In this document: positions 7,503 to 60,278 of the stretch, piece by piece
Layout: every line of letters begins with the position of its first letter
Numbering within the stretch: the stretch's first letter is position 1
DNA from: Planctomycetota bacterium
GTDB lineage: Bacteria > Planctomycetota > Planctomycetia > Isosphaerales > Isosphaeraceae
DNA: 64,000 nucleotides
NCBI GenBank assembly: GCA_021791715.1
Contig: JAJYWB010000009.1
Location: forward strand, 41,272 to 105,271
Reading direction: 5' to 3'
Position numbers and translations under genes: made by a program
Notes under the pieces: model-generated
What the model was told of the DNA's origin: nothing
Database searches by the model: none
Seen by the model: the letters and a program-made list of their open reading frames with translations, nothing else

Positions 7503-7632
7503 AAGAGAATGTATCTCCGGGAGGGCCAGGCGTCGACCGAGCCGACATTTTTCAATTCAGGAATAAGAAACGGCACACATGACCGTTCGCTCTTACAATG
7601 AGTTCGCGTCGCATGAACTAAGGATGCAATAG

Positions 7633-9000: not shown

Positions 9001-9039
9001 TTCTGATATATTTCCTTTATCCCATAAAAGGAGACTCCG

Positions 9040-11016: not shown

Positions 11017-11072
11017 GAAGGATTCGCATTATTCACCAATAACCTCGATATTATTTTCTTGGAGATTCGATT

Positions 11073-12569: not shown

Positions 12570-12663
12570 AATTATAACACAATATTATTTTCTATTCTTA
12601 TCACATATTGATTAGAATGTTTTGTTTCATTAAGACCGATATTATTCGACTATCGCCGTTTTC

Positions 12664-13863: not shown

Positions 13864-13995
13864 GAGCAATCCCGCGTCGATCTCGTTTTGAAAAATGAGC
13901 CGTTTCATGCACTGGGTATCGATATCATAAAAATTATATTCATATATTAATTACTTTTATTATTAATGATATTTCATATCTGCATTTTATCACAT

Positions 13996-18793: not shown

Positions 18794-20977
18794 ATGAGTT
18801 CGGCGCCTTCGCTAGCACCCGTCATGCCCGTCGGCCAGGCCGCGGAGGAGCTTGTCGTCAAGCTCCGTCCAGACCTCGTCGTCAGACCCCAGTTTTACGA
18901 GGGGATGACGCACTACGTGGTGAAAGATCCGATCGCGCTGAAATATTTTCGCTTCAAAATCGAAGAATATTTTTTGCTCGAGCAGTTTGACGGCAAGAAG
19001 TCGTTGCAAGACGTGAAGCGAGCGTTTGAGAAGAAATATCGCCCGCAGACGATCTCGGTCGAGGATCTCGTTCGGTTCGTTTCGCAATTGCACGAGGCGG
19101 GGATCGTTCAGCTCGATACCCCCGAGCAGGCGAAGGTGTTGATCGACCGTCGCCGCAAGCGATTCTGGAAGCAGATCGGTCAATTTTTCGCCAACATCTT
19201 ATATATCAAGATTCCCGTCTGCGACCCCGAACGACTGCTGACCTGGATGTACCCGTTTTTCCGCTGGATTTTTACGCCTTATTTCGTGGTCGCGAGTTTC
19301 GGGCTGATGTTCGCGGCTTTAACGCTGGTTTTCAGCCAGTGGTCGACGTTCGCATCGCGGCTCCCCAATTTTGAAAGCTTTTTTAATTGGCGCACGATTT
19401 TTTATTTTTGGACGAGCTTGGCGGTCGTGAAGGTGATTCACGAATTCGGCCACGGGCTGACGGCCAAGCATTACGGCGGCGAGGTTCACGAGATGGGCGC
19501 GCTGTTGCTCGTGCTCACCCCCGCGCTTTATTGCGACGTGACCGACAGTTGGCTTCTCCCCAATAAATGGCATCGCATCTGGATCTCGGCCGCGGGGATT
19601 TTCGTCGAATGTTTTCTGGCGAGCATCGCCACCTTTATTTGGTGGAACACCGAGCAGGGGCTGCTGAACAGCTTATCGTTAGCAACGATGTTCATATGCT
19701 CTGTTAACACGATCATGTTCAACGCGAATCCATTGTTGCGATACGACGGATATTACGTGATGGCCGACTGGCTTGAGATTCCCAATTTAAGGATCAAGAG
19801 CACGCAGTTTTTCAGTTATTTGTTTCAAGAGAAAGTTCTCGGGCTCGAGATTCCGGTGCAAAGTTATATGCCGCGATCGCGGCGGTTCTTGTTCGTGTTT
19901 TACGCGGTCGCGAGCTACCTGTATCGCTGGTTCGTCTCGTTCAGCATCATTTTTTTCCTGTACCGATTCCTCAAGCCGCACGGGCTCGGGTCGCTGAGCA
20001 TGTTGCTCGCGCTCGGCGCGCTCGTCCCCCTCGTCGGCATGCCTTTTTATCAAATGATCAAGTTTGCGAGAACTCCCGGGAGGCTGCGCAAGATGAAAAA
20101 AGGACGAACGTTCGCGTTCGTATCGGCCTGCGCGGCGTTGCTCGCCGCGATCATGCTGATCCCGACTCCGCTTCGCGTCCAGGGAACGCTGGTTCTCACG
20201 GTCGCCAAGCCGGCTCGGATTTACACCGAGATCCCCGGCCGGCTCGTCACTCTCAACGTGCGCGACGGCGATTGGGTGAAGAAAGACGCGGTGATCGCCA
20301 ATCTATCGAACCCGGAAAAGCAAATCGAACAGCGCGCCCAACAAGAGCTTTTCGACGCCAACATGGCCAAATACCGCTGGTTCGTCCGCGGCAGCGATCT
20401 CGCTTCACGCAAGGTCGCGATGCAATTCCTGGAACTCGCCAACAAACTCGAACCTTCGGTTGAAGAAATTAACAAGCAAGTGAATAGCTTAAATTTGATC
20501 GCTCCGCGCGAGGGGCGGGTGATCGGCCTTCCCGATTCCGACACCCTCGGCCAGTGGATCAAGCCCGATAAGCCCGTGTGCGAGGTCGGCGACCCGACCA
20601 AAATCGAGGCGCATTTGATTCTTGATCAGGGAGATATCGACCTGATCCGGGTCGGCAATGTCGCTCGCGTCAAGATCTACGGAGATTCGGAAACGACGTG
20701 GAAATCGAAGGTCGGAGAGATCGCCAAGCGAAACCGCGACGACATCCCTCCCGAACTGACGAGCAACGCCGGAGGCGAGATCGCCACCAAAAGCGACCCC
20801 AAGACGGGCCAGGCGAAACCCCTCTCGGCGGTTTACGAGGTGATCATCCCGATCGACAACCCCGAACAGATCCTTCATCCCGGCCAGCGCGGCTTCGCCA
20901 AGATCGACGGCGGCACGCATCGCCTTGGCTGGTGGCTCTGGCGGGTCGTCGCCAAAACGTTCCACTTCACGCTCTAA
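18794..20977 (+). CDS. three-part fusion: PqqD-like (RRE-like) N-domain + M50-like intramembrane metalloprotease core (HEFGH) + C-terminal HlyD-like adaptor domain
   Basis: N-terminus 'YVVKDPIALKYFRFKIEEYFLLEQFDGKKSLQDVKRAFEKKY...EDLVRFVSQLHEAGIV' is PqqD-like. Polytopic membrane region with 'VIHEFGHGLTAKHYGG' (HExxH). C-terminus 'LVLTVAKPARIYTEIPGRLVTLNVRDGDWVKKDAVIANL...IAPREGRVIGLP...VARVKI' has HlyD biotin-lipoyl/beta-barrel blocks. Confidence 0.65.
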   Translation: MSSAPSLAPVMPVGQAAEELVVKLRPDLVVRPQFYEGMTHYVVKDPIALKYFRFKIEEYFLLEQFDGKKSLQDVKRAFEKKYRPQTISVEDLVRFVSQLHEAGIVQLDTPEQAKVLIDRRRKRFWKQIGQFFANILYIKIPVCDPERLLTWMYPFFRWIFTPYFVVASFGLMFAALTLVFSQWSTFASRLPNFESFFNWRTIFYFWTSLAVVKVIHEFGHGLTAKHYGGEVHEMGALLLVLTPALYCDVTDSWLLPNKWHRIWISAAGIFVECFLASIATFIWWNTEQGLLNSLSLATMFICSVNTIMFNANPLLRYDGYYVMADWLEIPNLRIKSTQFFSYLFQEKVLGLEIPVQSYMPRSRRFLFVFYAVASYLYRWFVSFSIIFFLYRFLKPHGLGSLSMLLALGALVPLVGMPFYQMIKFARTPGRLRKMKKGRTFAFVSACAALLAAIMLIPTPLRVQGTLVLTVAKPARIYTEIPGRLVTLNVRDGDWVKKDAVIANLSNPEKQIEQRAQQELFDANMAKYRWFVRGSDLASRKVAMQFLELANKLEPSVEEINKQVNSLNLIAPREGRVIGLPDSDTLGQWIKPDKPVCEVGDPTKIEAHLILDQGDIDLIRVGNVARVKIYGDSETTWKSKVGEIAKRNRDDIPPELTSNAGGEIATKSDPKTGQAKPLSAVYEVIIPIDNPEQILHPGQRGFAKIDGGTHRLGWWLWRVVAKTFHFTL

Positions 20978-43795: not shown

Positions 43796-45286
43796 ATGAG
43801 CGTCCTCAAGTTTCGCCTTAATCAATCGAATATGGGGACGCGGTACCCCGAGCTAAAAAAAGCTTACGTCACGGGGCTCGATCGAGCTCCAGGACGGACG
43901 CAGGTCGAGCTAAAACCTCACCTATTAATATGCAAAAAAGAAGCATGTGAAAGCGGCCGCATTTTTCTTCCCTGGCCGGTCGACGGTTTCGGCATGCCGA
44001 TGGTGGGTACCGCGACTTTGGTCGAACGCGATCAACCCTATGATTTGGCGGTCGAACTCGCTCGGGGCAAGCTGAACGACGTGCGGAATCAATTGGCCGA
44101 TTGGCGTTTGATGGGGCTCAAATCGACCGCCGACCTCGACGCCTTGATTCACCTGGCGCAGTCGACCTTCGCCAAGGCTGCGACCTCTCAAGACGATCCC
44201 GCGGCGTCGCTCGCGGCGTCGCAGGAATGCCTGACCGCGGCGCACCGCGCCAGCATGCTCCTCGTCGAAACGTATACGAATCAAGTTTTGCACAAGCGTT
44301 TAGGACACGCGGCGAAGTTGAGCACGCTGGTGGCGACGGAAGTCGCCGGCGATCCGCGTTCCACGCCGTATTCGCATTCGATCACACGGGCGACGAACGC
44401 CGCGGTGATCGGTCAGCATTGGCGCGATCTCGCCCCCGTCGAGGGGAAATACCGCTGGGACGATTTCGACCTGCAACTCGCGTGGTGCCGCAGACGCCGT
44501 TTGACGCCGATCGCCCGGCCGATCCTCGAATTCCGCAACGCGGCGCTACCCGATTGGCTCTGGCTTTGGGAGGGGGATTTTGAAGCGATCGTGGGGATGA
44601 TCGGCGAACTCGTGAAGCAAGCGGTGCACCGTTACCGCGGCAAACTTCCGATCTGGCGGCTCGTCGGCCGCCCCGCGACCAACGACGTGCTGGGGCTCTC
44701 CGAAGAACAACAAATACAAATCACCGCATACGCTTTGCAAACGGCGCGCGAGATCGCCCCCAACACGCAGTTCGTGATCGACTTCGACCGCCCCTGGGCC
44801 GAATGGATGGGCTCGAGGAACTTCCAGCTCGGTCCGCTCCACGTCGCCAATTCGCTGGCGCAGGCCGATCTCAACCTCGCGGGAATCGGCCTCGAGATCG
44901 CCCCCGGGTTCGACCCTCCCGGCAGCCATCTCCACGAGATCCTCGATTTTTCTCGCATGCTAGATTTATATGCTCTTATTAACTTACCGCTTCATGTGAG
45001 TCTCTTTTTTCCGTCTTCGAGCAAGCCCGATTCGCAGGCGGATCAATCGATCAAGGTCGACACGCGTCAATGGGGGGGCGATCCGACCGAGGAATCGCAG
45101 CGTCAGTGGGCGGCGCGGTGGATTTCGCTCGCGGTGGCGAAGCCGTTCGTCAAATCGGTGACGATCTCGCACGCGGGAGACGCGCAACCGCATGTTTATC
45201 CTAATTCGGGTTTGATGCGACACGATTTCTCCTCCAAGCCGCTCTTCGAGTGGCTGAAGGGATTCCGAACGAAATACATCGAATAA
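43796..45286 (+). CDS. hypothetical protein
   Basis: Long ORF with normal codon usage for this genome. No motif I can confidently assign. Start could be an internal Met. Confidence 0.45.
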   Translation: MSVLKFRLNQSNMGTRYPELKKAYVTGLDRAPGRTQVELKPHLLICKKEACESGRIFLPWPVDGFGMPMVGTATLVERDQPYDLAVELARGKLNDVRNQLADWRLMGLKSTADLDALIHLAQSTFAKAATSQDDPAASLAASQECLTAAHRASMLLVETYTNQVLHKRLGHAAKLSTLVATEVAGDPRSTPYSHSITRATNAAVIGQHWRDLAPVEGKYRWDDFDLQLAWCRRRRLTPIARPILEFRNAALPDWLWLWEGDFEAIVGMIGELVKQAVHRYRGKLPIWRLVGRPATNDVLGLSEEQQIQITAYALQTAREIAPNTQFVIDFDRPWAEWMGSRNFQLGPLHVANSLAQADLNLAGIGLEIAPGFDPPGSHLHEILDFSRMLDLYALINLPLHVSLFFPSSSKPDSQADQSIKVDTRQWGGDPTEESQRQWAARWISLAVAKPFVKSVTISHAGDAQPHVYPNSGLMRHDFSSKPLFEWLKGFRTKYIE

Positions 45287-45330
45287 TCGTCGCATTTGGA
45301 ATGATCAACGACGAATTATTTTTGGATGAC

Positions 45331-45900
45331 GAACCGAATTTGGGAGGGCGAACCTCCTGGTGAGCCATATTTATATTATAATAGATAAATCTCTCGACCG
45401 ATCATGAATAATTAAATGAACCGATCTCGGGTGGGCGAACCGTTTTTGGGAGGGCGAACCTCTTGGTGAGCAGGCTTCATATTTCGATTGACGATTTACT
45501 CGGCCGACCATGCATGAGAAAATGATCCGATCCTCAGATGGCGATCCATTTTTGGGTGGGCGAACCAATTATGGGGGGCGAACCGAATTTGGGAGGGCGA
45601 ACCTCCTGGTGAGCCAAATTTATATTATAATAGATAAATCTCTCGACCGATCATGAATAATTAAATGAACCGATCTCGGGTGGGCGAACCGTTTTTGGGA
45701 GGGCGAACCTCTTGGTGAGCCATTCTCATATATAGATTGAAAATTCGCCCGGCCGACCATGCATGAGAAAATGATCCGACCATCAGATGGCGAACCGAAT
45801 TTGTGAGGGCGAACCTCCCGGTGATCCGTCTATATATTACGATTGATAATTCGCTCCGCCCAACAAACATGAGAAAATGAACGATTTTTGGGAGGGCTCA
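45331..45900. repeat. intergenic higher-order tandem repeat: 36-bp core motif recurring every ~105-110 bp, organised in ~249-bp super-units (2.4 copies)
   Basis: Core 'gaaccg(aa/tt)tttgggagggcgaacctc(c/t)tggtgagc' at 45331, 45436, 45580, 45685 and 45792, plus degenerate copies near 45540 and 45880. The AT-rich inter-core segments are themselves repeated pairwise (A,B,A',B'). So the structure is a duplicated super-unit, not unique spacers. Confidence 0.85.
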
Positions 45901-46140
45901 CCCCTTTGCTATTTACCTCGATATGAATGATTATTTTAAAATGCCGGCTCGGTCGGCGCCTCGCCCTCCCGACAAACACCCTCCATGTTGTAACTTACCG
46001 CGATATTCGGCGCGTCGCCCCCGCTGTAAACGTACTCCTATGTAAATCATATCGCGAAATACGCCGATTAAAAATAATCGGACAATTCGCGGGCGAACCG
46101 CGATCGCGCCTCACCCGCATCATAAAATCCACTCGCTTGA

Positions 46141-46758
46141 TCATTCGTTTCGATCGGGAGGAGGACCGCCGCCGGGACCGCCGGGGCGACCGCCGCGCGG
46201 GCCGCCGAATCCGCCCCCCGGACCGCGCCGACGCATCTCCTCGAGCGTCTTCCGCTGCTTGTCGTTAAGAATCTTTTCCAGTTTGGAATCGACTTCTTTT
46301 TGAAGCGCTTCGATCTCTTTCTTTTGATCAGGCGTTAATTTCAGCCGATTTTGAACCATCATCGGCAGGATCTCGCCGGGACGCGGCGGAGGCCCCATGA
46401 ATCCCCCCGGGCCGCCCCCGGGCCCTCCCGGACCGAAACCTCCAGGTCCGCCGCGACCGAATCGGTCGTTCGCTCGTTCCTTCGACGCCAATGCGTTCAA
46501 TTCGTCGTTCGTCACCACGCCGTCCTTGTCGGCGTCGGCGCGGTGAAAAAGCCGAATCAATCGCGCGTCGGTGATCTCGCCCTCGGTCAATTTGCCGTCC
46601 TTGTTCGCGTCAAACGCCATCATCCGAGAAGCCAGATCGTCGCCGACCGACGACGAATTCGCGATCGTTCCGCGACCCCCGTCGGGTCGTTGAGCCGTCG
46701 CAATCGTCGCCGCGATCGCCAATCCCGCGATCGCCGACACGGAGAGAATCATTCGCAT
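46141..46758 (-). CDS. secreted EF-hand domain protein with Gly/Pro-rich segments
   Basis: Signal MRMILSVSAIAGLAIAATIATA. Two canonical 12-residue EF-hand loops, 'DANKDGKLTEGE' and 'DADKDGVVTNDE'. GGPGGFGPGGPGGGPGG low-complexity. Confidence 0.7.
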   Translation of the reverse strand: MRMILSVSAIAGLAIAATIATAQRPDGGRGTIANSSSVGDDLASRMMAFDANKDGKLTEGEITDARLIRLFHRADADKDGVVTNDELNALASKERANDRFGRGGPGGFGPGGPGGGPGGFMGPPPRPGEILPMMVQNRLKLTPDQKKEIEALQKEVDSKLEKILNDKQRKTLEEMRRRGPGGGFGGPRGGRPGGPGGGPPPDRNE

Positions 46759-46816
46759 CGCTTCCCTTTCATCATACCAGTATTATGATAAGTTATGAAT
46801 CAGATAGAATTTTCGA

Positions 46817-47521
46817 TCACTTGTTCGTCGTTCGATTCGATTGCAGATCGCGTTCGTCGGGGGTTTTGCCCAGGACGATCTCGAAATGAGCCGAGAGCTC
46901 GCCGACCTTCGAATCTTTAATCGGCTTGAACTCGACGCGAAGCAGCTCGCGATCGAAAACGCCGATTCCTCCGCTCGCGATTCCGTCGACGTCGTTGCCG
47001 GGATGTCCCGCGATGTTCATCTGGGTGGTGAGGATCTCGCGTCCTCCTTTTTTAATCTTGAAGTGAATGTGAGGCGCGGGCCTGCCGGGATAAGGGACGG
47101 GCTTGATCGTACGGAAGTAGTATTCGCCTTTCGAACCCGTGGTGAACCTGCCGAAGCCCTGAAAATTGGGGTCCCAGCGGTCTTTGTTTTGATCGGAGTC
47201 TCCCGAGTGGTGGTAAACCTGTTTGGCGTCGCACTGCCAGATCTCGACGGTCGCGTTTCGGATCGGATCGCCGTTCGGGCCGAGGATTCTGCCCGTCAGA
47301 TGCGTGATCTCGCCGACCGCTGGAGTGAGCGAATCGTTGACGACGATCAGATCGTTATCGGTATCGAGCGGCAATTTATCAGGATAAAACGGCCCCTCCT
47401 CGCGCGGAGGGGTCGCCGCGAGCTGTTCGGCGAAGAGCCCGCGGGTCGTGAAAAACGCGGCGCTCGCGGCCATCGTCCCCAAAAAGGCGCGCCGGCGACG
47501 GATTGACAAATGCGAGTTCAT
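46817..47521 (-). CDS. intradiol ring-cleavage dioxygenase (protocatechuate 3,4-dioxygenase beta-subunit-like) with Tat signal
   Basis: ATG at 47521 with GGAG ~10 bp upstream. 'MNSHLSIRRRRAFLGTMAASAAFF' Tat motif. 'GRILGPNGDPIRNATVEIWQCDAKQVYHH' and 'PAPHIHFKI' iron-ligand blocks. Confidence 0.75.
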   Translation of the reverse strand: MNSHLSIRRRRAFLGTMAASAAFFTTRGLFAEQLAATPPREEGPFYPDKLPLDTDNDLIVVNDSLTPAVGEITHLTGRILGPNGDPIRNATVEIWQCDAKQVYHHSGDSDQNKDRWDPNFQGFGRFTTGSKGEYYFRTIKPVPYPGRPAPHIHFKIKKGGREILTTQMNIAGHPGNDVDGIASGGIGVFDRELLRVEFKPIKDSKVGELSAHFEIVLGKTPDERDLQSNRTTNK

Positions 47522-48041
47522 GGAAGAGATCTCCTCGATTCGGAAACACGCGAGACGCCGGAACGCGCGACACGACGCCGCTCGACATTGACGACTCGTC
47601 GAAAAACTCCGAAAAAACCGCGATTCCAAGGTGATTCGCTCGAGATCACAGTTTATTAGCTCATGTTCAAGAAATTTTAGTGAAATATCATGATTCGATG
47701 AATCCGATTGGAAATCGACCCGCACGCGATCGATGCGGCGAGATCGGGTCCGAGCCGAACGGCGCGGGAAATGGCTTCAAGACCGACCCCCGAACTCAAA
47801 TCGACGACCTTCCTCGTAAGAGAAAGCGTCGATTCGGCGGCGATCGTCACGGCAATTTTCCAAAGGCTGCGATTTCGAATCGCGGATCGAAAGCAACCGA
47901 AGGCTTGATTGAATCAAGCGGGCGATCAGCTCGATTGCGATCACTCGCATCATCGATGAACAACGCCCTCGCTTGGATGCATGCGTTCGATCACTCCGGA
48001 TTTTGTATGGCTTCGATTGCCGGCGACTTGATCTTCGCCGC

Positions 48042-48332
48042 GAGCGATGTTTCCAAAAATCAACACCATCGCGACAATCTATTCATGATATAAGACATTT
48101 TCCCTAGATAATCGCCGGCTAAACTCTGAAAAACAAGCGTTTTTATGCATCCCGAACCCGCGTGCAAAAAAATGAGAAAATCGGAAAACGGGTATTGCAA
48201 TCCAATGGCGCCGCCGTAACGTTATGGAATTTAGACCGATCGACGTGATTCGGATCTCCATGATTCACCAACCGATCGATCCTCTCTCGGGCGGGATTTT
48301 CATCGCCCCCGCGTCGTCTTCGGGTTTGGGTC
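48042..48332 (+). promoter_or_regulatory. conserved ~290-bp non-coding leader element, copy B (see 7211-7502)
   Basis: Colinear with copy A; 124 bp upstream of the ATG at 48456. The small ORFs overlapping it on both strands differ between the copies and are probably not coding. Confidence 0.8.
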
Positions 48333-48455
48333 GATCGTTAAGGATCATTCGATCATAGCGATGATTCCTTGCGAAAATAGGATTGGCCTCGTTCAATAAT
48401 CCTCAGCGCACCAAAACGTTCAATTTCGCGTACTTCCATTCGAATAGCGCTTTGA

Positions 48456-49535
48456 TTGAGGCTGGATGAAATGATAACGCATCATGATTCGGATTCCGGT
48501 TTTATAATCGATCAACCATCCTACATGATTGCTTTTTCGAGTGTACTCGCATTTGTTGTGATTTTGTCGATTATCCATTGCTTCGCACCACGATTATTGA
48601 GCAGATCGTCCACCATTCATGGAGACCGAACGCCTAAAATGGTGTTACCGGACGAACCTCTCATGTTATCACATCGAGTTCCCGGAGAACTGGTTGAAGG
48701 TACATTTAATATACGAAATGTCGGTAAGGCGCCGTTGGAATATCAGCTCTTTCCATCGTGTGGTTGCGTCATCCTCACCCCGCTCGATGGACGGATAGCA
48801 TCCTCAGAATTCCAGCCTATTCGCGTCGGAATGAAAACACTGGGATACGGTCAGGAAAAAAGTGTTCTCATTCACCTCAAAACAAACGATCTATCGTTGG
48901 TTGAGACTGATTATCGTGTTACAGCATTCTGTCCGTCGCCTCTTGAAACGACTCCGAGTGTGATCAATTTGGGGAGGATACCACCGGCTGTCGAGAAAAA
49001 CATTCGATTGACAGTCGCTTATAAGTCGGCTCAATCTTACGCGATGACGACTTCCAATCACGAGCGAATCGGGATGCACCGGATAAGCTCGAAGGGACTC
49101 GTTGACGAATGGGATCTAAGAATACATGCCGGATCAAAGATAGGATTTGTAACCGATCAGATCCGGATCGATATCGAAGGCTATTCGGTTCCGATGACGA
49201 TCCCAATCGTTGGAGAAATTGTCGATGAGATGATCATTTCTCCATCATATGTGGCCTTGATGAAGAAACAGAGAGGGAAAGGATATCGCGATGTGATTTT
49301 GATCGCGTCTCGGAGGGATGGCGAACCGTTTGGAAGAATCGACAGGATCGATAAACCTGATCATATCTTATTTCATGAGATAGATCGGGAAGAATCGATC
49401 AAACGTCGACGCATACGAGTCGAATTTCGCGGAGATCATCCGCAAGATTTATCGGAACCGTCGATCGTCCGCTTCTATTTTATGGGAATGAAACGGCCCG
49501 TGGTCGTTCGATTCCAGCCTTGCCGTGATCGTTGA
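48456..49535 (+). CDS. DUF1573-like secreted/membrane-anchored protein
   Basis: Signal anchor IAFSSVLAFVVILSII. 'GTFNIRNVGKAPLEYQLFPSCGCVILTP' matches the DUF1573 F.F.N.G..PL.I....SCGCT block. AT-richer than the genome average. Confidence 0.55.
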   Translation: MRLDEMITHHDSDSGFIIDQPSYMIAFSSVLAFVVILSIIHCFAPRLLSRSSTIHGDRTPKMVLPDEPLMLSHRVPGELVEGTFNIRNVGKAPLEYQLFPSCGCVILTPLDGRIASSEFQPIRVGMKTLGYGQEKSVLIHLKTNDLSLVETDYRVTAFCPSPLETTPSVINLGRIPPAVEKNIRLTVAYKSAQSYAMTTSNHERIGMHRISSKGLVDEWDLRIHAGSKIGFVTDQIRIDIEGYSVPMTIPIVGEIVDEMIISPSYVALMKKQRGKGYRDVILIASRRDGEPFGRIDRIDKPDHILFHEIDREESIKRRRIRVEFRGDHPQDLSEPSIVRFYFMGMKRPVVVRFQPCRDR

Positions 49536-49567
49536 CGTTGGACACGTTTCAACAAGGAGAGCAATCC

Positions 49568-50044
49568 ATGTCGGTTTCATCTTCGGCGCCAATTCGGATG
49601 ATCGTTATCGTCGGATTCATCGCATCGGCGAGTTTGGCGATTTTCGCCGCGGGATCTCCTCCCATCGGCCCGGCGAACTGCAAGACTTCGGGGAACAACT
49701 GCTCCGACTGCATGGTCACTCTTGAAGCGACACAAAACCAAATGTGCACGAATAACAACATCTTTAAAGGATGTTTTATCACTGTTTGCCAAGCGGCGTC
49801 ATTGAGTTCTGTGTCAATCTGCGTCTATAACGGCGCTCAAAAACCGCCTGGGTGCACGCCGAAGACGACGAACAATATGGCGTCATGCAGCAATTGCGCA
49901 TTTTCTCTATGCTCCTGCGCAACCGGGACAGGTACATGCCCTATCGCGGGATTCAATTCTTTAGGGAATTGTTTCATTCCTGGAGGCGGTTGCGCCGGGA
50001 TCACTGTACTTGGAACTTGGAATTCAATCCCTCAGTGTTCCTGA
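49568..50044 (+). CDS. small secreted cysteine-rich protein (about 17% Cys in the mature part)
   Basis: GGAG 8 bp upstream of the ATG at 49568. Signal MSVSSSAPIRMIVIVGFIASASLAIFAAG. Mature part is Cys/Gly/Asn/Thr/Ser-rich (CKTSGNNCSDC..., CSNCAFSLCSCATGTGTCP...). Confidence 0.5.
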   Translation: MSVSSSAPIRMIVIVGFIASASLAIFAAGSPPIGPANCKTSGNNCSDCMVTLEATQNQMCTNNNIFKGCFITVCQAASLSSVSICVYNGAQKPPGCTPKTTNNMASCSNCAFSLCSCATGTGTCPIAGFNSLGNCFIPGGGCAGITVLGTWNSIPQCS

Positions 50045-50166
50045 GCGTTCGAGTTGCACACCATCGTTCGATCGCCGATACACCTGGAAAGCTCTCGTAT
50101 CGGCGAATCCATTCATCATTCTCTTGAGTCAATCGCTCCGCTGAATGATCTATACAGGATTAAATC

Positions 50167-51327
50167 ATGAAGCAATCAAATCGATCGATCGTTGCTCTTT
50201 CCTCGATCTGTGTCTTTCTCGCGTCGATCGTCGTCGACCCGTCACGGTCGTTCGGCGATATCGACGACGTCGACGCGATCGTGTCCAATATTCGTTCGAG
50301 CGAAGCTTTATATAAGAACATCGAACTGCAATGGGTTTTTCAATATCGCCTGGGAGACGTGAAGTACATGATCAAAGACAAGACTTTAAAGAATTCCACC
50401 GAATTTGTACGAGTTGTGAAACAAGGCGATTATCTTTACAGCAAGTATAACGAGAGTAGTTATAGGATCGACAAACAAAGCAAGGATTTTCAGGTTGAGT
50501 GCGGATTCGACGGCGCGACGAGTCGAATCGTCGATCTCGGCGCAGCGGCGAACATCACCGACGAGGTATTCGATGGTAACTCGGTTCGAGAAGCCGATCC
50601 GTTTCGTATGCTAATGAAGTGGGATTATGTAAGACATCTTAACATAAGTTTATCAGCATTTTTATCAAGCGGAGAAAGCATCAAACAATACCATGGATAT
50701 GAGCATACAAATATTAAGATCGTTCACGAGCTAGACGAGACGATCGACGGACTCGATTGTATAAAACTTGGAATCTATTTATGGTTTATCGGAACGACTA
50801 TCGACGACGGACAGGTTACATATATTTGGCTGGCGCGTGAACGTAATCTGATTCCTGTCAAATACACGATGTACTTTCCAAAAGTGAGAAAGATTCATCC
50901 GACCTTGATCGGTTATTCGTCGGATTTTCGCGAGATCGCCCCCGGAGTCTGGTTTCCGCATCGATATGAGATTAATACATACGATAACGAGTATATGACT
51001 GAGGACAATAAGATTGTGAAAGGAAACAATCTATTGACCACGATCGTCAAAGCCGAACTCGATCCCGATTATCCGCGATCGTTTTTTCAAAATATCCCCA
51101 TTCCCGACGGGACCATGGTGTATGAGATCAAAAAGAAAGAGACGGTCGCCAAGTATGTTCAGGGATTACCGCGTAAGATTCATCCCAATGACAATGCGCG
51201 ATCATCGGCGAGCATTTGGCTGGTAATCGGCGCGATCGTCTCTTTTTCGATCGCATTCGTCGCCTGGAAACGAATCTCGCGTCGAGTGCCGATCGTTCCG
51301 ATCGATCCATTCGATACAAAAGCGTAA
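50167..51327 (+). CDS. hypothetical secreted protein with C-terminal TM anchor and basic tail (paralog of 51874-52920)
   Basis: Signal IVALSSICVFLASIVV. C-terminus 'IWLVIGAIVSFSIAFVAWKRISRRVP'. Shares 'C.FDG...+IVD' and overall architecture with the next gene but one. Confidence 0.5.
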   Translation: MKQSNRSIVALSSICVFLASIVVDPSRSFGDIDDVDAIVSNIRSSEALYKNIELQWVFQYRLGDVKYMIKDKTLKNSTEFVRVVKQGDYLYSKYNESSYRIDKQSKDFQVECGFDGATSRIVDLGAAANITDEVFDGNSVREADPFRMLMKWDYVRHLNISLSAFLSSGESIKQYHGYEHTNIKIVHELDETIDGLDCIKLGIYLWFIGTTIDDGQVTYIWLARERNLIPVKYTMYFPKVRKIHPTLIGYSSDFREIAPGVWFPHRYEINTYDNEYMTEDNKIVKGNNLLTTIVKAELDPDYPRSFFQNIPIPDGTMVYEIKKKETVAKYVQGLPRKIHPNDNARSSASIWLVIGAIVSFSIAFVAWKRISRRVPIVPIDPFDTKA

Positions 51328-51679
51328 CAGTCATCCGCATACGGATAATACCCGGAAGCTCATAACATAGTATTGGACCGGGGTTTGATCGTCACTCTTC
51401 GGGTTTGAACCGTATTTGAAAGAAAAGGTTGGATCGATATGTCGCCGAACGGATATTCAAGGATGATTGATCGTTAACGAATTGACCCAGGGATTCATCC
51501 CGGCCCGAGATCTCCCACCCCCGCGGACTGGATGCCGGTAAAACAGGGAACCGGGTTGATCGGAAAAAAAGCTACCAAGATCAACAAGATCCGTAGCTTG
51601 ATCGATTCGAATGTCTTATCAACTCATCCCTCGAGACTCTCCACAACACCGAAATGGTTACTCCCAGCCTTGAATGCAT

Positions 51680-51808
51680 TCCAACGAATTGGGGTCGATC
51701 AAACCCGCGATTTCCCTTATGATCGTACGGTATCGAGAACCCGCGTGAAAGTTCGGTCAAGGAAGACAAGGCGATGCTCGCAGGGATACGCGACGAGACG
51801 ATCGATCA
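51680..51808 (+). promoter_or_regulatory. ~130-bp duplicate of the leader and first 11 codons of the GT39 gene at 53549, placed upstream of the gene at 51874
   Basis: Near-identical to 53457-53588: 'tccaacgaattggggtcgatc...atcgagaacccgcgtgaaagttcggtcaaggaagacaaggcgATGctcgcagggatacgcgacgagacgatcgatca'. The copied reading frame (MLAGIRDETID...) runs into a different frame from the downstream gene. Confidence 0.8.
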
Positions 51809-51873
51809 AGACCCCCGATCGACGACCCGATGTACATCGACGAAACTCCCATTTGTCAGAAACGAGATATATT

Positions 51874-52920
51874 ATGAACCTTATTATGATTATTGCGACG
51901 ATCTTCGCCGCGGTATCGGGCGAGAAGCCCGGTCATACCGACTCGACGTTGTCGCGATGCGTGAGAGAGCGAATGACCGTCGATTCGGGAGAACTGATCA
52001 TCAAAGCAAAATTCCTCGTGCTCAAAGACATCCCCCAGGCGCAAGGCTCTTCGCGGAAATTCCACATTTGGTTCCAATCTTATCCAAAGATGTATCGATT
52101 TGATATTGAAGTTGAGAATGATCGCGATTACGACAAAAGCTTTCATTCCGAGCGATTCTGTTATGACGGCACGATATTTAAAATCGTCGACGATATGAAT
52201 TCCCATAAACCGCTTCGCCAATATTCCTACATTCCGAATCCGGCTCCGAGCGTCTTCGACCCGAGAATACTAGGTCTACACTTCGGTCCGATCTTATGGA
52301 TGGCGCCGTTCCATCTCGATGGCCTTCTTAAACTTATTGATGAATCTACATTAGTCGAATCAACCCGATCGAACGGCGGCAAGAGAGAGATTTATATCGC
52401 GGATAAAGAACGTAAACTCATATATGATTTTGATGATAACGGCCAACCCGCCGCGGCGGAATACTTACGTGGAGAAGGAGGGTCGGAGGAACATTACAAG
52501 TTGGATATCACGACGCAAGTTTACAAAAACACACTACATTTTCCGAAATCGATTCACCTCGTCGAGTACAAGGGGTCGACGGTCCAAACAGATGAAAAAA
52601 TAGATATTGATGTGATTCAACTCAATGAGCGTCTCGATTCGTCGGTGTTCTCTTGGAAATCTCTCTCACCCAAACCCGGTTCGAGGCTTGTCTTCGATCA
52701 CGATTACAAGACGCAATCGGTATACTGGAACGGCGAGCGAATCCAGAACATTCCCAAGGAGCTTTTACACAATCTTTCAGCCGATTTGATGCGGTATGAA
52801 TATCGATCATGGAGGCGGATCATCGTCGCAGCCTGTCTCCTCGTCGTCTCCGTATTTTTACTAATCGCGTATCGATACCGATTAAAACGTTCCCGTCTCC
52901 CACGAAACAACGTCGAGTAG
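51874..52920 (+). CDS. hypothetical secreted protein with C-terminal TM anchor and basic tail (paralog of 50167-51327)
   Basis: Signal MNLIMIIATIFAAVSG. C-terminus 'IIVAACLLVVSVFLLIAYRYRLKRSRLP'. The ORF-track start at 51532 is upstream of a more plausible ATG at 51874. Confidence 0.5.
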   Translation: MNLIMIIATIFAAVSGEKPGHTDSTLSRCVRERMTVDSGELIIKAKFLVLKDIPQAQGSSRKFHIWFQSYPKMYRFDIEVENDRDYDKSFHSERFCYDGTIFKIVDDMNSHKPLRQYSYIPNPAPSVFDPRILGLHFGPILWMAPFHLDGLLKLIDESTLVESTRSNGGKREIYIADKERKLIYDFDDNGQPAAAEYLRGEGGSEEHYKLDITTQVYKNTLHFPKSIHLVEYKGSTVQTDEKIDIDVIQLNERLDSSVFSWKSLSPKPGSRLVFDHDYKTQSVYWNGERIQNIPKELLHNLSADLMRYEYRSWRRIIVAACLLVVSVFLLIAYRYRLKRSRLPRNNVE

Positions 52921-53548
52921 TTTCCCCGCGATTGAATTACGGTCGTCTCGATCGATCCTCGTGTTTGATTCTCGTCGTCTCGACGGATCGATCACCATCG
53001 TCTCGAAGGCGTTCCAGAAGAAACGCCGAGATTTTTGCGGAATTTGTGCGAGAATCTTCAATCGAGTCCGCAAATCGTGTTCTTCCAAATGGATCCGTCG
53101 ATTTTCAAGTCGTGATTTATCTTCGTTCCCTCATGGAATTATCCAATTGAGAGTCGTCGCGAAGTCGCGCCCCGAGCAACAAGAATAACTAGATATTTTA
53201 TATTAATAGTTTCTAGTTCTGATTGACGGGAATTGATCCACGGTTCATCTCGCCCAGATCGTTTTGATGGATCTTTTCATAAATCCACCAGGAGGCGCCG
53301 GTTTTTTTCCATCTTTCGCCGTCGCGATATACCTCATAAGAACAATTAATCTTTGATCCTATTACGAATCCGCGATTGTTCGGCTTTTGTAATATCTCTT
53401 AACCTGCGTCTCGATCCGAACCCAACATGGCCGCACACATCCATTCCTTGAGTCGATCCAACGAATTGGGGTCGATCGATCCCGCGATTTCCCATATAAT
53501 CGAATTATCGAGAACCCGCGTGAAAGTTCGGTCAAGGAAGACAAGGCG

Positions 53549-55313: not shown

Positions 55314-56858
55314 ATGTCGAAAGGTTTGCGGTCTTCCGGCGTGGAAGTTGCTAGAATACGGGCCGAGCGGAGGGCGCTCGGACTCGAGGGCTTCATGATC
55401 GTACGCGACCGACACGACGGATCAATCGACAACGCCGCGATCTCGGCCGGAGACGCGACCAAGGGGCGCGCGTCCAAAGTGATCGGTTTATACCAGATCA
55501 TGCTCAAGCGAGTTCTTGAGCATTTTTTTCCAGAAGGTCGATTGGATCCCGCGGAGGATCGGAGTTCGATCGAGTTCGATTGGGGGGGTAGGCGGGCGAA
55601 TTTCGTGATCGGCGAGGATCCCGACGGATTGGGGGTATCGATCGAGTGGTTTCGCTCGCGTTATTTTTTTCGGCCGACGAGTCCGACGCCTTTTTCGGCT
55701 TCGGAGCGTCGGCTGATTCAGGTCGCGGCGCACGTGCTCGACGCTCGGTTTCGGACGATGTTTGATTTGGGGACGGCGACGCGTCCCGAGCTGTTTCATT
55801 ACGCGGTCGAGGATTTCGTCGTCGGCGAGTTTCTCAGTCCGCCGAATTTATTAAGGGTGCCGATCGCGCTCGAGACGTTGCGCGTGGCGGCTTTATCAAC
55901 GTACGAGGCGCGGCGGGTATCGACGGGGGTGATGTTGTTGGGGACGACGCACGATCCTTCGTTCCCGCGGCACGGCGTTCCGGAATCGGCGACGCCTTTC
56001 GATATACGTTTATCTTCGCTCAAGAGCTTTCATCGTCTGTGCGACGGCCTGAGAACGCTGTTTTTGGTGAATCGCGACGGGATGTTGGGTTCGGTGGTCG
56101 ACGTCGAGCGGTGGTCGCGGCGGGTCGAGTTCGACGAGCCGAACATCGCGTGTTGTCCACGTATTTACGCGCATCATTCACGAGCGACATTATCAGGTCA
56201 GCATATCGGGATGGTATTAACACCTTGGCAAGAGATCAAGGTGTTCGCGGGGGGGCAGTTGGCGTTCGCGTTCAGCGACGCGCGGTGGCGTTTGCTCGAT
56301 ATACCCGCGAAGTTCGCGGTTTGGAAGCAAGCCGCGGGGGAGACGACGCCTTCGGATCTGGCGGATCGGATTTTCCACGCGGCGCTGAATTTAAGCGAGG
56401 ATCATATCGGCGCGTTGATCGTGGTGTTGCGCGATCCCGAACATTCGTTCACGCGACTCGTCGCTCCCGGGGATCGGATTCACGACGGCGCGGCGCGAGC
56501 CGGCGACGACGACGCGGAGCAAGAGGGGGGGTTCCACGGTTTTTCCTCGCAACAGATCGCGGGGAAGCACTTGTTGCATCAACTTGTGAGAGATCAGAAC
56601 ATCGACGACATGGATCCCGCGGTGTTGGAGGCGCTGGCGGGGGTCGACGGCGCGGTGGTGACCGATCGTCGCGGCAGGCTCTTGTCGTTCGGTGCGATTC
56701 TGCGAATTCCACCCGAAACGATGCTGCCGGCCCGCGCCGTCGAGGGCGCCCGCACGACGGCTTCGCTCGTCGCCTCGTTCTACGGACCCGTGCTCAAGGT
56801 GAGCGAGGACGGCTTTCTCACGATGTATCTCGGCGGTCGGCGCATCTGGGAGATTTAA
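55314..56858 (+). CDS. protein with C-terminal DisA_N (diadenylate cyclase, DAC)-like domain carrying a degenerate RHR motif; N-terminal ~330 aa unknown
   Basis: 'SEDHIGALIVVLRDPE', 'VDGAVVTDRRGRLLSFGAILRI' (DGA motif present), 'GARTTASLVASFYGPVLKVSEDGFLTMY'. This aligns with the CdaA/DisA DAC domain, but the canonical GTRHRAA is GARTTAS here. Confidence 0.55.
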   Translation: MSKGLRSSGVEVARIRAERRALGLEGFMIVRDRHDGSIDNAAISAGDATKGRASKVIGLYQIMLKRVLEHFFPEGRLDPAEDRSSIEFDWGGRRANFVIGEDPDGLGVSIEWFRSRYFFRPTSPTPFSASERRLIQVAAHVLDARFRTMFDLGTATRPELFHYAVEDFVVGEFLSPPNLLRVPIALETLRVAALSTYEARRVSTGVMLLGTTHDPSFPRHGVPESATPFDIRLSSLKSFHRLCDGLRTLFLVNRDGMLGSVVDVERWSRRVEFDEPNIACCPRIYAHHSRATLSGQHIGMVLTPWQEIKVFAGGQLAFAFSDARWRLLDIPAKFAVWKQAAGETTPSDLADRIFHAALNLSEDHIGALIVVLRDPEHSFTRLVAPGDRIHDGAARAGDDDAEQEGGFHGFSSQQIAGKHLLHQLVRDQNIDDMDPAVLEALAGVDGAVVTDRRGRLLSFGAILRIPPETMLPARAVEGARTTASLVASFYGPVLKVSEDGFLTMYLGGRRIWEI

Positions 56859-58056: not shown

Positions 58057-58731
58057 TCAATCGAGAAACGTCACCTCGGATCGATCGGCGCCGATCGGGC
58101 GACGGCCGCGGGGGGAAGGCTCGTCGTCGTCGAGTTCGAGCCTGATCTCGAGATCGGGAACGACGGCGATATCGCCGAGGGGCGCGAGCGAACGAGACGA
58201 TCGGTTCGGGTCGCGTTCGAGATCGGGTTCGACCCGGCCGAGCGACGCGCGGATATCCGCGAGCGGTCGATGATCGACCGGAAACGTGAAGTTCCGTTGA
58301 TGCGCCGTCCAAAGCGCCGCGTCGCGATTGTAAGGGCTCCGAATATCATAATTATGATAACGCGCCATATCCCAGATCATCACGCATAAATCCGCGAGCG
58401 AAACTCCCGGCGCCCAGTGCGCCGCGTACGCTCCCAGACACACCATCCCCGTTTCGGATATATTGGGATGATAAATCGGCGTGAGCCAACGGAGAGCCGG
58501 AGGAGTGCGCGGGTAAGCCGCGGCGAGTTCGACCTCGACCTGATGCGAACTCCGCACAATCACGCGATCTCCCTCGCGCGCCAGGGATTTCCCGTGAAAC
58601 TCCAGCATGTACATACGAGGAGGTGAGCCGTTCGCCTGAAATCGAAAGATCGTGCTCTCTTCGCTCAGCCGAACGAGGGCTGCGTGATCGGATCGTAATC
58701 GTCTTATATGAGGCGATTCATAAGCCGCCAT
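58057..58731 (-). CDS. ubiquitin-conjugating enzyme E2-like (UBC fold) protein
   Basis: 'PPALRWLTPIYHPNISETGMVCLGAYAAHWAPGVSLADLCVMIWDMARYHNYDIRSPYNRDAALW' carries the UBC active-site signature HPN(I/V)x3-4Gx(I/V)CL with the catalytic Cys, followed by the W.P..s+..vl pattern. N-terminal half fits the UBC alpha1-beta-sheet (RRLRSDHAALVRL...). Confidence 0.7.
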   Translation of the reverse strand: MAAYESPHIRRLRSDHAALVRLSEESTIFRFQANGSPPRMYMLEFHGKSLAREGDRVIVRSSHQVEVELAAAYPRTPPALRWLTPIYHPNISETGMVCLGAYAAHWAPGVSLADLCVMIWDMARYHNYDIRSPYNRDAALWTAHQRNFTFPVDHRPLADIRASLGRVEPDLERDPNRSSRSLAPLGDIAVVPDLEIRLELDDDEPSPRGRRPIGADRSEVTFLD

Positions 58732-58834
58732 GTTCTTTGGTTCTCAAATGTGCTTCAGGACGAAACGAAGCCGCCTCTCGGCGACGTTTCGACCGGACGA
58801 CGAATCATTCGCAATTCGTACGATCCGAAACGTT

Positions 58835-59167
58835 TCAACCGATTCGACGAGCAAATCGTCGACGCCCGGCGTCCGCGCCCGCGACGACCTCGGGGTAGAC
58901 GATCAGGTGATCGCCGCTTTGAACCCCCGCCTCGACGAGCGTATGGCTTTCGAGCAGTCGACGACCGCCTTCTTTATGATCGAGCGCGTAGCTCATCGGC
59001 TGACCGTCGGGGCTCAGCGTCGGTAAGCTCATTTTGGTGATAATGTTGGGCAAAATACGGCTCACGGGCACGCTGAAAGCGATGACCGCTCGAACCGATT
59101 TCGAACCCGTTTGGTCCAGGAAGGTTACCTGAACTCCGTTGGGATCCGCCGACCCGCCTTGCGACAT
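58835..59167 (-). CDS. small beta-grasp / ubiquitin-like candidate protein ending in Gly
   Basis: 110 aa. GGAGG 9 nt upstream of the ATG. 'VQVTFLDQTGSKSVRAVIAFSVPVSRILPNIITKMSLP...LVEAGVQSGDHLIVYPEVVAG' fits a Ub-like beta-beta-alpha-beta-beta layout, with the 'SGDHLIV' penultimate strand. 13-aa tail ends ...RRIG. Confidence 0.5.
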   Translation of the reverse strand: MSQGGSADPNGVQVTFLDQTGSKSVRAVIAFSVPVSRILPNIITKMSLPTLSPDGQPMSYALDHKEGGRRLLESHTLVEAGVQSGDHLIVYPEVVAGADAGRRRFARRIG

Positions 59168-59333
59168 TTTCCAATGCCTCCTCTTTCGCTATTCGCTCAT
59201 TCCGCTTGAATATTGCGTCAAATCGCCGTCGGTCCGCGCGATCTCGTCAAAAAGCGTGCGCCCCGCGATCGATCGTACCAGGAAATCGATCCGATCGGCG
59301 TGATTCGCTTATCGACGCCATGCGAAAGCCCCG

Positions 59334-60278
59334 TTAAACAGCGACGCTCATCTTCCCCTGACAGCCGAAAATTGAACACCCGCCGATGTATTCCCAACAA
59401 TCGTGATGATAAGGAGTTCGGCACGCCGCGCAGACGACTCGACGCGTTTTGGGAAGGATCGGATCGCCGCAGACCTTGCAAATCGGCGGCCCGGTCTCGG
59501 CGAAATTCGCCGCTCCCACTTCCTTGATCGTAATCCCCTTCGACATCCTCGCCTGAATGCTTTTCCCGAGCGCGTCGAGCAAAACGAGCGACTCGTAAAC
59601 CATCCGTCCCAGGAGCTCGTCGTCGGTCCCCATATCGCGATCGATCTGGATCATCATCCGATCGGGATCGATCGAGACGAGAAAACTCGCGGGAAACGCC
59701 AGCCTGCCAAGATTCTCGACGGCGCGCCGACCCGAAAGCTCAAACACGCTCGTCGCAAGCTCGGGATCGTTGGAGAAAAGCTGAAAGGATCGATCGAAAT
59801 CGACGTCGCCGATCGGCACTTGACGAGCGCCTCGAGGCGATCGATGAATCGCATCGGGCGAAACCGGGGTCAACTCCATACGAAACGATTTATTCAATCG
59901 GCCGATCCGCGCGACGACACGCGACCGAGGATACGAGGGCCCTCGACGCGGTACCACGGGCGCCAGTCCAACGCGAACGAGAGCGCCGTTGTACAAAAAG
60001 CCGACGGTCGGCGGCTCACCAAACCCCCTCGGTTCGTATCGTCCCCGATACCGCTTCGCCAAACGCCGATACGCTCGGTAACGACGCTCGGACAACCGGC
60101 TCACGAAGAACGACGCGGCGCGAAGCACGAAATAGAGAAGGAGAAAAACTCCCCCCGTCCCGACCAATGAAATGATTGAAGAAGCCATGTGTTTGATCGG
60201 CCGACGCGACTCCCCGCGATCACGGCGAACGAGCCTTGATGAATCTCGATTGTATCGCGAACGAGGCTCACGCCGCAA
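59334..60278 (-). CDS. membrane-anchored protein with C-terminal C4HC3-type zinc finger (RING/PHD-like cysteine spacing)
   Basis: TM 'IISLVGTGGVFLLLYFVLRAASFFV'. C-terminus 'CKVCGDPILPKTRRVVCAACRTPYHHDCWEYIGGCSIFGC' = C-x2-C-x12-C-x2-C-x4-H-x2-C-x7-C-x4-C. True start may be the internal ATG at 60188. Confidence 0.5.
   Translation of the reverse strand: MRREPRSRYNRDSSRLVRRDRGESRRPIKHMASSIISLVGTGGVFLLLYFVLRAASFFVSRLSERRYRAYRRLAKRYRGRYEPRGFGEPPTVGFLYNGALVRVGLAPVVPRRGPSYPRSRVVARIGRLNKSFRMELTPVSPDAIHRSPRGARQVPIGDVDFDRSFQLFSNDPELATSVFELSGRRAVENLGRLAFPASFLVSIDPDRMMIQIDRDMGTDDELLGRMVYESLVLLDALGKSIQARMSKGITIKEVGAANFAETGPPICKVCGDPILPKTRRVVCAACRTPYHHDCWEYIGGCSIFGCQGKMSVAV

Follow-up and report, generated by a model that had tools for sequence, protein, structure and literature searches.

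A 64,000-nucleotide stretch of an Isosphaeraceae genome (Planctomycetota bacterium, assembly GCA_021791715.1, contig JAJYWB010000009.1, positions 41,272 to 105,271), referred to below as the window, carries three consecutive minus-strand genes that encode a transmembrane (TM) RING-type putative ubiquitin ligase (E3), a ubiquitin-like protein (Ubl), and a ubiquitin-conjugating enzyme (E2). This triad is, with good confidence, one half (E3-Ubl-E2) of a Ubl-conjugation system that the Planctomycetota inherit vertically. Its class has been predicted in bacteria, and the triad is a split, rearranged representative of it, not a new minimal module. The complete operon, in which the activating enzyme (E1), the E2, the RING protein, the Ubl, and a JAB peptidase are encoded together, was encountered in most relatives, e.g., in Singulisphaera acidiphila, but not in the window.

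Operon architecture in related genomes

A genome scan with the E2 sequence, restricted to one genome per species, yielded 80 loci from 80 different assemblies. All of them belong to Isosphaeraceae or to metagenome-assembled genomes labeled to higher Planctomycetota ranks only. The Ubl and E2 genes are adjacent in 78 of the 80 loci, and a TM-RING gene is located within 10 kb in 48 loci, mostly directly upstream of the Ubl gene. The three-gene arrangement recurs far beyond chance, and gene order in the related loci bears out the proposal of a first-pass annotation, made from the window sequence, that the three genes form a conserved unit.

When the neighboring open reading frames (ORFs) were clustered, conserved genes came to light on the same strand, downstream of the E2 gene. 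A ThiF-type E1 gene directly follows the Ubl-E2 pair on the same strand in approximately 71 of the 80 loci, and genes for a JAB peptidase, an M48 peptidase, and an MMPL transporter are found further downstream in most loci with enough flanking sequence. The commonest gene order is RING-Ubl-E2-E1-JAB-M48-MMPL (18 loci), together with truncations thereof. In S. acidiphila DSM 18658 (NC_019892.1, locus L042), Pfam recognizes, in order, ThiF (2e-55; gene at 10950-12260 of the locus), JAB (2.9e-9; gene at 12369-13775), Peptidase_M48 (1e-35), and MMPL (2e-79). In the JAB/MPN protein of this species, the sequence shows the H-x-H-x7-S-x2-D motif and, at the C-terminal end, two hydrophobic segments that we read as TM helices; the JAB gene is separated by 16 bp from that of the M48 protease, which carries a CAAX-protease N-terminal membrane domain. 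The same gene order was observed on independent metagenome contigs (precomputed Pfam calls), and all six E1 contexts that were examined are canonical or nearly so. The best 120 homologues of the E1 from locus L006 are 68-93% identical to it, and identities of about 60-75% are typical among orthologues of the operon E1 in other genomes.

In one otherwise canonical operon (L089), an insertion of three Uma2-family genes in tandem (11261-13412) lies between the E1 and JAB genes, and gaps of about 2-2.7 kb separate the same two genes in L006, L009, and L010. The operon can accommodate insertions as well as breaks, the latter at several different junctions. Public gene names scatter the system: the Ubl is an "EsaB/YukD family protein" or hypothetical, the E1 is assigned to the "HesA/MoeB/ThiF family" or called a "molybdopterin-synthase adenylyltransferase", and only the E2 is publicly named "ubiquitin-conjugating enzyme E2".

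Products of the three genes

The three co-directional ORFs lie on the minus strand, as first annotated, at 58057-58731 (224 aa, E2), 58835-59167 (110 aa, Ubl), and 59334-60278 (longest form, RING protein), with gaps of 166 bp between the RING and Ubl ORFs and 103 bp between the Ubl and E2 ORFs. All three proteins exceed the curated Pfam cut-offs, for UQ_con, YukD, and Prok-RING_1, respectively, and the AlphaFold2 (AF2) models of the E2 and the Ubl have the UBC and beta-grasp folds; profile searches and structure predictions of this kind had been proposed as checks on the initial reading. The features assigned to the locus are as follows (pLDDT, the per-residue confidence score of AF2).

58237-58731, minus strand: UBC catalytic core, E2 residues 1-165 (Pfam, profile search, AF2/Foldseek)
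58462-58470, minus strand: HPN motif of the E2 (conserved in 81/81 sequences)
58438-58440, minus strand: catalytic Cys98 of the E2 (conserved in 81/81 sequences)
58060-58236, minus strand: disordered acidic C-terminal tail of the E2 (pLDDT <50 for residues 172-219)
58877-59167, minus strand: mature Ubl modifier, residues 1-97, with the invariant end EVVAG (Pfam, AF2, Foldseek, conservation)
58838-58876, minus strand: C-terminal propeptide of the Ubl, ADAGRRRFARRIG, whose predicted removal would expose G97 (no conservation past G97)
59168-59190, minus strand: Shine-Dalgarno sequence AGGAGG, 9 nt upstream of the Ubl ATG (read from the sequence)
59334-60188, minus strand: TM-anchored RING-type putative E3, 284 aa (Pfam Prok-RING_1; gene callers)
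60102-60176, minus strand: N-terminal TM helix, residues 5-29, IISLVGTGGVFLLLYFVLRAASFFV (hydropathy maximum)
59361-59480, minus strand: C4HC3 binuclear zinc finger, residues 237-276, CKVC...CAAC.TPYHHDCW...CSIFGC (conserved ligands)

The active site of the E2 reads HPNISETGMVCLG followed by HWAPGVSLADLCVMIW, and the HPN motif (H88, P89, N90) and the catalytic Cys98 are present in all 81 E2 sequences, in agreement with the UBC active site recognized at the outset. The protein matches Pfam UQ_con (PF00179) with E=5.6e-15 and 55.6 bits (cut-off 27). When a profile of E2 homologues was compared with PDB sequences, Ubc13 was the best match (1.6e-10), and among the 60 best matches listed all names denote eukaryotic-type E2s. 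The AF2 model (mean pLDDT 69.5) is confident for residues 1-90 (about 90) and poor in the active-site loop, residues 93-104 (<50). Its topology, consisting of helix 7-25, four strands, and helices 99-143, is the UBC alpha/beta fold, and Foldseek aligns it with Rad6, UbcH5, and Ubc13 over approximately 145-150 columns (E ~1e-7 to 1e-6). Residues S6, P7, R10, R11, L12, and D15 of the N-terminal helix are invariant in the alignment, including the window. The window protein is a eukaryote-type UBC E2, and E1-dependent thioester formation is predicted for it.

The Ubl exceeds the cut-off of Pfam YukD, a beta-grasp family (PF08817; 5e-13, 50.1 bits, cut-off 27). Its AF2 model has the beta-grasp b-b-a-b-b topology (mean pLDDT 81.9, core about 92), which upholds the first description of a beta-grasp-like protein. 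The best PDB matches of the model in Foldseek are SUMO1, the ubiquitin of Caldiarchaeum (6fno, 6fj7), and ubiquitin (TM-score 0.7-0.83 on the target), and a sequence search of PDB with the Ubl profile found no meaningful relative. The segment SGDHLIVYP had been taken for the penultimate strand; in the model DHLIVYP is the last strand (residues 87-94).

An alignment of Ubl proteins from 78 loci demonstrates near-identity through GDHLIVYPEVVAG and none beyond. Residues V94, V95, A96, and G97 (...YPEVVAG97) are invariant, the ending being Ala-Gly, not Gly-Gly. About 10 relatives have Ubl ORFs that end exactly at VVAG, and the others continue for 2 to >60 variable, unrelated residues. In locus L022, the stop codon follows VVAGSN, which rules out an in-frame Ubl-E2 fusion there. 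Since conservation stops at G97 and the tails after it are variable, the final Gly of the window ORF ("RIG"), correctly noticed in the first-pass annotation, is a coincidence, and the predicted conjugation site is G97 of EVVAG. The propeptide would be cleaved after G97, likely by the JAB peptidase of the system, by analogy with the Rpn11-type processing reported for the Caldiarchaeum ubiquitin precursor, as cited in PMC10557695.

Sequence identity of the Ubl amounts to 76-92% across Isosphaeraceae, and some 90%-identity clusters hold approximately 300 member sequences. The Ubl gene has the best Shine-Dalgarno sequence of the region, as had been stated before, and neither the E2 nor the RING gene has a comparable motif. 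A GGAGG-type Shine-Dalgarno sequence precedes the Ubl gene in all 76 orthologous loci, and a strong signal confined to the Ubl fits a modifier that is needed in stoichiometric amounts. Two plus-strand ORFs, 58708-59040 and 58730-59026, run antisense to the Ubl gene and the start of the E2 gene. They were rejected as genes: their GC content at third codon positions is 0.51, compared with 0.64-0.75 for the real genes, and we read them as antisense artifacts typical of a GC-rich genome.

For the RING protein, gene callers place the start at ATG 60188 (284 aa) rather than at TTG 60278, the start of the longest ORF. The protein has a single N-terminal hydrophobic helix (Kyte-Doolittle maximum 2.18 over 19 residues). 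Residues 266-302 of the long ORF match Pfam Prok-RING_1 (PF14446; 2e-9, 37.7 bits, cut-off 29.1), and the S. acidiphila orthologue scores 35.7 bits. The TM anchor, the eight zinc ligands, and their order are as initially described, and one spacing had to be corrected, from x7 to x6, giving C-x2-C-x12-C-x2-C-x4-H-x2-C-x6-C-x4-C. All eight ligands are kept in all intact homologues (46/48); in the remaining two (L032 and L054) the reading frame is lost in or just after the finger. The finger also has weak matches to PHD and C1 Pfam families, and a PDB sequence search found no meaningful relative of the protein, the best matches being C1-type fingers with E ~1. The protein is classified as a putative E3 with a RING-like finger.

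The window as a split version of the operon

In a neighbor-joining tree of E2 proteins, the window groups with loci L005 (DAHWFG01) and L033 (CAWFUI01) in a separate, deeply branching clade, and none of the three has a local E1. A nearby E1 is also lacking in L021 and L043, independently of the window clade, and in L022, L051, and L094 the E1 is present with no JAB gene within approximately 10 kb. Because the operon breaks at various points in other genomes, trans-acting parts appear to be common in the family. In the lineage of the window, the break probably occurred after the E2 gene.

All three genes are under purifying selection in the split clade, with ratios of nonsynonymous to synonymous substitution rates (dN/dS) of 0.05-0.25. 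When the window is compared with L005, the Ubl (variable tail included) has a dN/dS of 0.25, the E2 of 0.19, and the RING protein of 0.20. The comparison of the window with L033, in which synonymous sites are at or close to saturation, gives values of 0.045 (Ubl) and 0.12 (RING protein). The clade also keeps the VVAG end, Cys98, HPN, the E2 N-terminal helix, the zinc ligands, and the Shine-Dalgarno sequence. Given purifying selection together with the invariant HPN and catalytic Cys, we infer that an E1 is encoded elsewhere in the genome. The most economical reading is that E1, JAB, and their partners act in trans from another locus.

A number of observations weigh against assigning the triad to a split conjugation system. 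As remarked in the first-pass annotation, no E1 or JAB gene is adjacent. A tblastn search of the window with the S. acidiphila E1, JAB, M48, and MMPL proteins returned nothing at 1e-3, Pfam detected no ThiF or JAB domain in the eight ORFs around the locus or in 30 other large ORFs of the window, and the 4.7 kb beyond the window end contain neither; the ThiF/JAB-free stretch around the triad extends for about 58 kb on one side and 10 kb on the other. In a search for the E1 of the organism itself, the homologues and six context look-ups gave only loci that keep Ubl-E2 upstream, none from the window lineage; the rarity of this deep clade may be why its E1 did not surface among the best 120 E1 matches. 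By sequence, the Ubl belongs to the YukD/EsaB family, whose founding member was reported to be unconjugated (PMC1779556). The cross-brace fold of the RING protein and its binding to E2 are predictions. It is gene neighborhood that suggests a link to membrane quality control, and the M48 and MMPL genes are missing from some loci. Finally, no biochemical evidence for any member of the family was found in the searchable literature.

The first-pass annotation had left open whether the triad is an unusually reduced set or one whose E1 lies elsewhere. A truly reduced triad might borrow a housekeeping MoeB/ThiF adenylyltransferase or function by non-covalent Ubl binding alone. The lack of ThiF and JAB genes in the window and just beyond it agrees with this possibility, as does the recurrence of the same local arrangement, with genes under purifying selection, in L005 and the deeply diverged L033. 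Nevertheless, we regard it as unlikely. Every other lineage pairs the E2 with a dedicated, conserved E1 (68-93% identity; 60% in the Pirellulales-type operons described below), which stands next to Ubl-E2 in most relatives and tells against a minimal module, and the split clade retains the VVAG end, Cys98, HPN motif, and E2 N-terminal helix that E1-dependent charging needs. Moreover, the inspected sequence amounts to approximately 70 kb of a multi-megabase genome, and components of the system are encoded apart from one another in other genomes as well. The evidence favors an E1 located elsewhere.

Breadth and inheritance of the system

The E2 family comprises 81 clusters (at 50% identity) with E <=1e-30 and 782 clusters with E <=1e-10, and its named distant members come from other Planctomycetota, including Pirellulaceae. 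A variant operon was observed in L085 (5716-11567) and L087 (5494-11610), one of the two records being named Pirellulaceae. Its genes encode, in order, a Ubl, an active E2, a small JAB protein, a ThiF E1, a large membrane JAB protein, a second E2, and a TM-Prok-RING_1 protein. The variant Ubl is 68-70% identical to that of the window and ends in EIVAG, with or without a tail; the active E2 is 49-52% identical and has the same C-terminal motif; and the E1 is 60% identical to that of S. acidiphila. The second E2 has no catalytic Cys and is therefore similar to ubiquitin E2 variants (UEV-like), which recalls E2/UEV pairs such as Ubc13-Mms2.

The system is present in a single copy in all 80 assemblies. 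In the E2 tree, sequences group by genus (Singulisphaera, Tautonia, Paludisphaera, and Tundrisphaera), which indicates vertical inheritance. Taken together, the single copy, the genus-clustered tree, and the strongly conserved modifier speak for a cellular system that is old and inherited vertically, and against a mobile defense island. The triad of the window is flanked by genes for a class I/II aminotransferase and a malate/lactate dehydrogenase, both confirmed by Pfam; among the 80 related loci, these housekeeping flanks are common only to L005 and, in part, L033. The original impression of a housekeeping context rather than a defense island is consistent with the copy number, the genus-congruent tree, and the results obtained with PADLOC, which are given next.

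A role in anti-phage defense of the Bil or CBASS-Cap2 kind, with the Ubl conjugated to phage or host proteins on infection, is suggested by precedent: the characterized bacterial E1/E2/Ubl/JAB operons are defense systems, and uncharacterized ones have been predicted to be so (PMC10557695). Like the Bil (BilABCD) and type II CBASS Cap2/Cap3 systems (PMC10557695, PMC10097602), the Isosphaeraceae operon combines bacterial E1, E2, Ubl, and JAB-type chemistry in one operon. In PADLOC, the S. acidiphila E1 and JAB proteins have weak, partial matches to the Cap2, BilD, and BilC models, those of the E1 to Cap2 "E1-E2" and BilD being in the adenylation domain at <=58 bits, and the flanking genes vary between genomes. 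However, PADLOC gave no significant match for the E2, Ubl, RING, and M48 proteins, and the window proteins were rejected as members of a defense system (the best E2 match, to a generic E2 model, has E=0.029; the Ubl and the RING protein have none). Unlike Bil and CBASS, the operon includes a RING E3, its E2 is of the eukaryotic UBC type, and it is inherited vertically as a single copy across the family, with related operons in other Planctomycetota. Genes of defense systems are expected to evolve fast, unlike this slowly changing Ubl. Given also the core metabolic genes around the triad, we find a defense role improbable.

The triad could also be a decaying, functionless remnant left after loss of the E1-JAB part, as the incomplete local operon might imply. 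This explanation is very unlikely, as no ORF is disrupted in the window, L005, or L033 despite the (near-)saturation of synonymous sites between the window and L033, dN/dS stays at 0.045 (Ubl) and 0.12 (RING protein) against L033 and 0.19-0.25 against L005, and the catalytic residues, zinc ligands, VVAG end, and Shine-Dalgarno sequence have all been kept.

Comparison with known systems

In 2011, Burroughs, Iyer, and Aravind (Mol Biosyst) predicted operons with E1, E2, RING, Ubl, and JAB genes in bacteria of three groups, the Actinobacteria, Planctomycetes, and Acidobacteria (as cited in PMC4197634, with further mention in PMC10557695 and a summary in PMC3417536). As far as these descriptions go, the type of system considered here is not new, belonging to a class that was predicted in 2011 and is experimentally uncharacterized. 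In the account given there, the predicted operons, like those of the relatives analyzed here, combine a ThiF E1, a UBC E2, a TM-associated C4HC3 RING protein, a beta-grasp Ubl, and a JAB protein (PMC4197634). The same work is given as the source of the Pfam family Prok-RING_1, above whose cut-off the window RING protein scores. Another survey reported no bacterial genome with a complete ubiquitin toolkit (PMC4327156). Our literature search found no paper tying Isosphaeraceae or Planctomycetota to a ubiquitin-conjugating system, and a 2025 review of the phylum is silent on ubiquitin.

The closest characterized analogue is the five-gene ubiquitin operon of Caldiarchaeum subterraneum from the Aigarchaeota (Nunoura 2011; reconstitution by Hennell James 2017, PMC5654768). 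It is likewise compact and encodes a ubiquitin(-like) protein, an E1, a UBC E2, a small RING E3, and an Rpn11/JAB protein that processes the ubiquitin precursor, and its ubiquitin structures (6fno, 6fj7) are matched by the window Ubl model. In contrast to the Caldiarchaeum ubiquitin, the window Ubl belongs to Pfam YukD, is about 22% identical in the structural alignment, and ends in Ala-Gly instead of Gly-Gly. Other differences are the membrane anchors of the E3 and JAB proteins, the M48 and MMPL partners with no evident link to a proteasome, and, in the window, an E1 and a JAB protein that are not encoded adjacently.

The least probable explanation that we considered, to which we give almost no weight, is that the Ubl is not conjugated and instead serves the structure or assembly of a secretion or membrane machine, in the way of YukD/EsaB in type VII secretion: the Ubl shares PF08817 and the beta-grasp fold with YukD/EsaB and the EccD N-terminal domain, NCBI names its orthologues "EsaB/YukD family protein", the EccD ubiquitin-like domain is among the Foldseek matches, and YukD itself was reported to be unconjugated and sits in ESAT-6 secretion loci (PMC1779556), but the present Ubl is locked to E2, E1, JAB, and RING genes, carries an Ala-Gly near its C-terminus that is invariant and precedes dispensable tails, and lies in inspected neighborhoods with no type VII secretion genes (FtsK/EssC, WXG100, or EccD Pfam families). 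The match to the NCBIfam model T7SS_EccD has E=0.022 and 13.6 bits (cut-off 95). As YukD proper is reportedly an unconjugated component of type VII secretion loci, the Pfam/NCBI name is functionally misleading here.

Among eukaryotic systems, the MARCH family and Doa10/MARCH6 combine a C4HC3 finger with a membrane anchor and cooperate with HPN-Cys UBC E2s in turnover of the kind known as endoplasmic reticulum-associated degradation (ERAD), and Ste24, an M48 protease, acts in membrane and translocon quality control. Compared with MARCH/Doa10, the window protein has a finger that matches Prok-RING_1, a single N-terminal TM helix, and a C-terminal position of the finger. A functional parallel to RING-CH, Doa10, and Ste24 biology may be drawn by analogy.

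Proposed mechanism

For the split conjugation system, homology suggests the following sequence of steps. The 110-aa Ubl precursor would be trimmed after G97 of EVVAG, likely by the JAB/MPN metallopeptidase of the system. A ThiF-type E1 would then adenylate G97 and hand the Ubl to Cys98 of the E2. The membrane C4HC3 RING protein would bring the charged E2 (E2~Ubl) to the membrane or to membrane-proximal substrates and promote transfer to lysines, and the membrane-anchored JAB peptidase would reverse the modification. The tight JAB-M48 linkage and the frequent MMPL neighbor suggest the last step: with a Ste24/HtpX-like M48 protease and an MMPL transporter co-encoded in most relatives, the modification may serve membrane-protein quality control or regulated turnover.

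Several components share a short acidic-hydrophobic motif. It is found in strand 1 of the Ubl (VQVTFLDQ), at the C-terminus of the E2, at the N-terminus of the E1, and in both E2 tails of the Pirellulales-type operon. The E2 motif, [DE]-psi-x-F-psi-[DE]-COOH, is present in 61 of 80 orthologues, SEVTFLD being its form in the window. About one-half of the E1s begin with LTFLD(D/E) (e.g., L006, L007, L012, L037, and L042), and psi-psi-IDDxDRYSR is present in nearly all of the N-termini listed. Complexes of SUMO with SUMO-interacting motifs (SIMs) are among the best Foldseek matches of the Ubl model, and the acidic-hydrophobic peptides, which resemble the beta-strand peptides of SIMs, may be SIM-like docking peptides for the Ubl.

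A more far-reaching proposal, which we put forward only tentatively and hold to be rather doubtful as a whole, is that an ancient, complete, and near-universal Ubl system of Isosphaeraceae, with a Pirellulales variant, a modifier under ubiquitin-like constraint, and a membrane E3 and JAB peptidase coupled to M48 and MMPL proteins, forms a bacterial analogue of ERAD/MARCH ubiquitination. The E1, the E2, and the UEV-like E2 would be recruited through "psi-x-F-psi-D" SIM-like peptides, and the two halves of the system would be able to work in trans.

Other features of the window

A 514-aa protein encoded at 55314-56858 on the plus strand has a weak, sub-threshold match to DAC/DisA_N (diadenylate cyclase; E=1.5e-3). 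It is conserved beside the malate dehydrogenase gene in L005 (97% identity, partial) and L033 (69% identity).

Two regions of the window have low GC content. The first, at 6000-13900 (GC 0.37-0.53 vs. approximately 0.58), contains four plus-strand genes: a 455-aa ORF with no Pfam match (7633-9000), a 658-aa protein with a PT-HINT pretoxin domain (9040-11016), a 498-aa TPR protein (11073-12569), and a GT4 glycosyltransferase (12664-13863). This island looks like a polymorphic-toxin cassette. The second, at 45000-53000 (GC 0.45-0.50), includes an Ig-like/DUF1573-like protein (48456-49535) and three ORFs of 170-462 aa with no Pfam match (49532-52920). Two proteins of the Peptidase_M50 (site-2 protease) family are encoded on the plus strand at 4854-6110 and 18794-20977, the latter being fused to HlyD-type membrane-fusion domains.

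Implications

What the window mainly adds is that the E3-Ubl-E2 part of the system persists as an independent unit, and an apparently E1-less cluster of E2, Ubl, and E3 genes is to be read as a fragment of a split operon. Gene annotation as it stands obscures the system. If it conjugates as predicted, cultivable planctomycetes, e.g., S. acidiphila DSM 18658, would provide a bacterial model of a full cascade of E1, E2, RING protein, and deubiquitinase. The ubiquitin-like constraint on the modifier and the membrane location of the E3 and the deubiquitinase would then bear on the origin of RING-dependent ubiquitination, as well as on membrane-protein quality control in a phylum with elaborate endomembranes.

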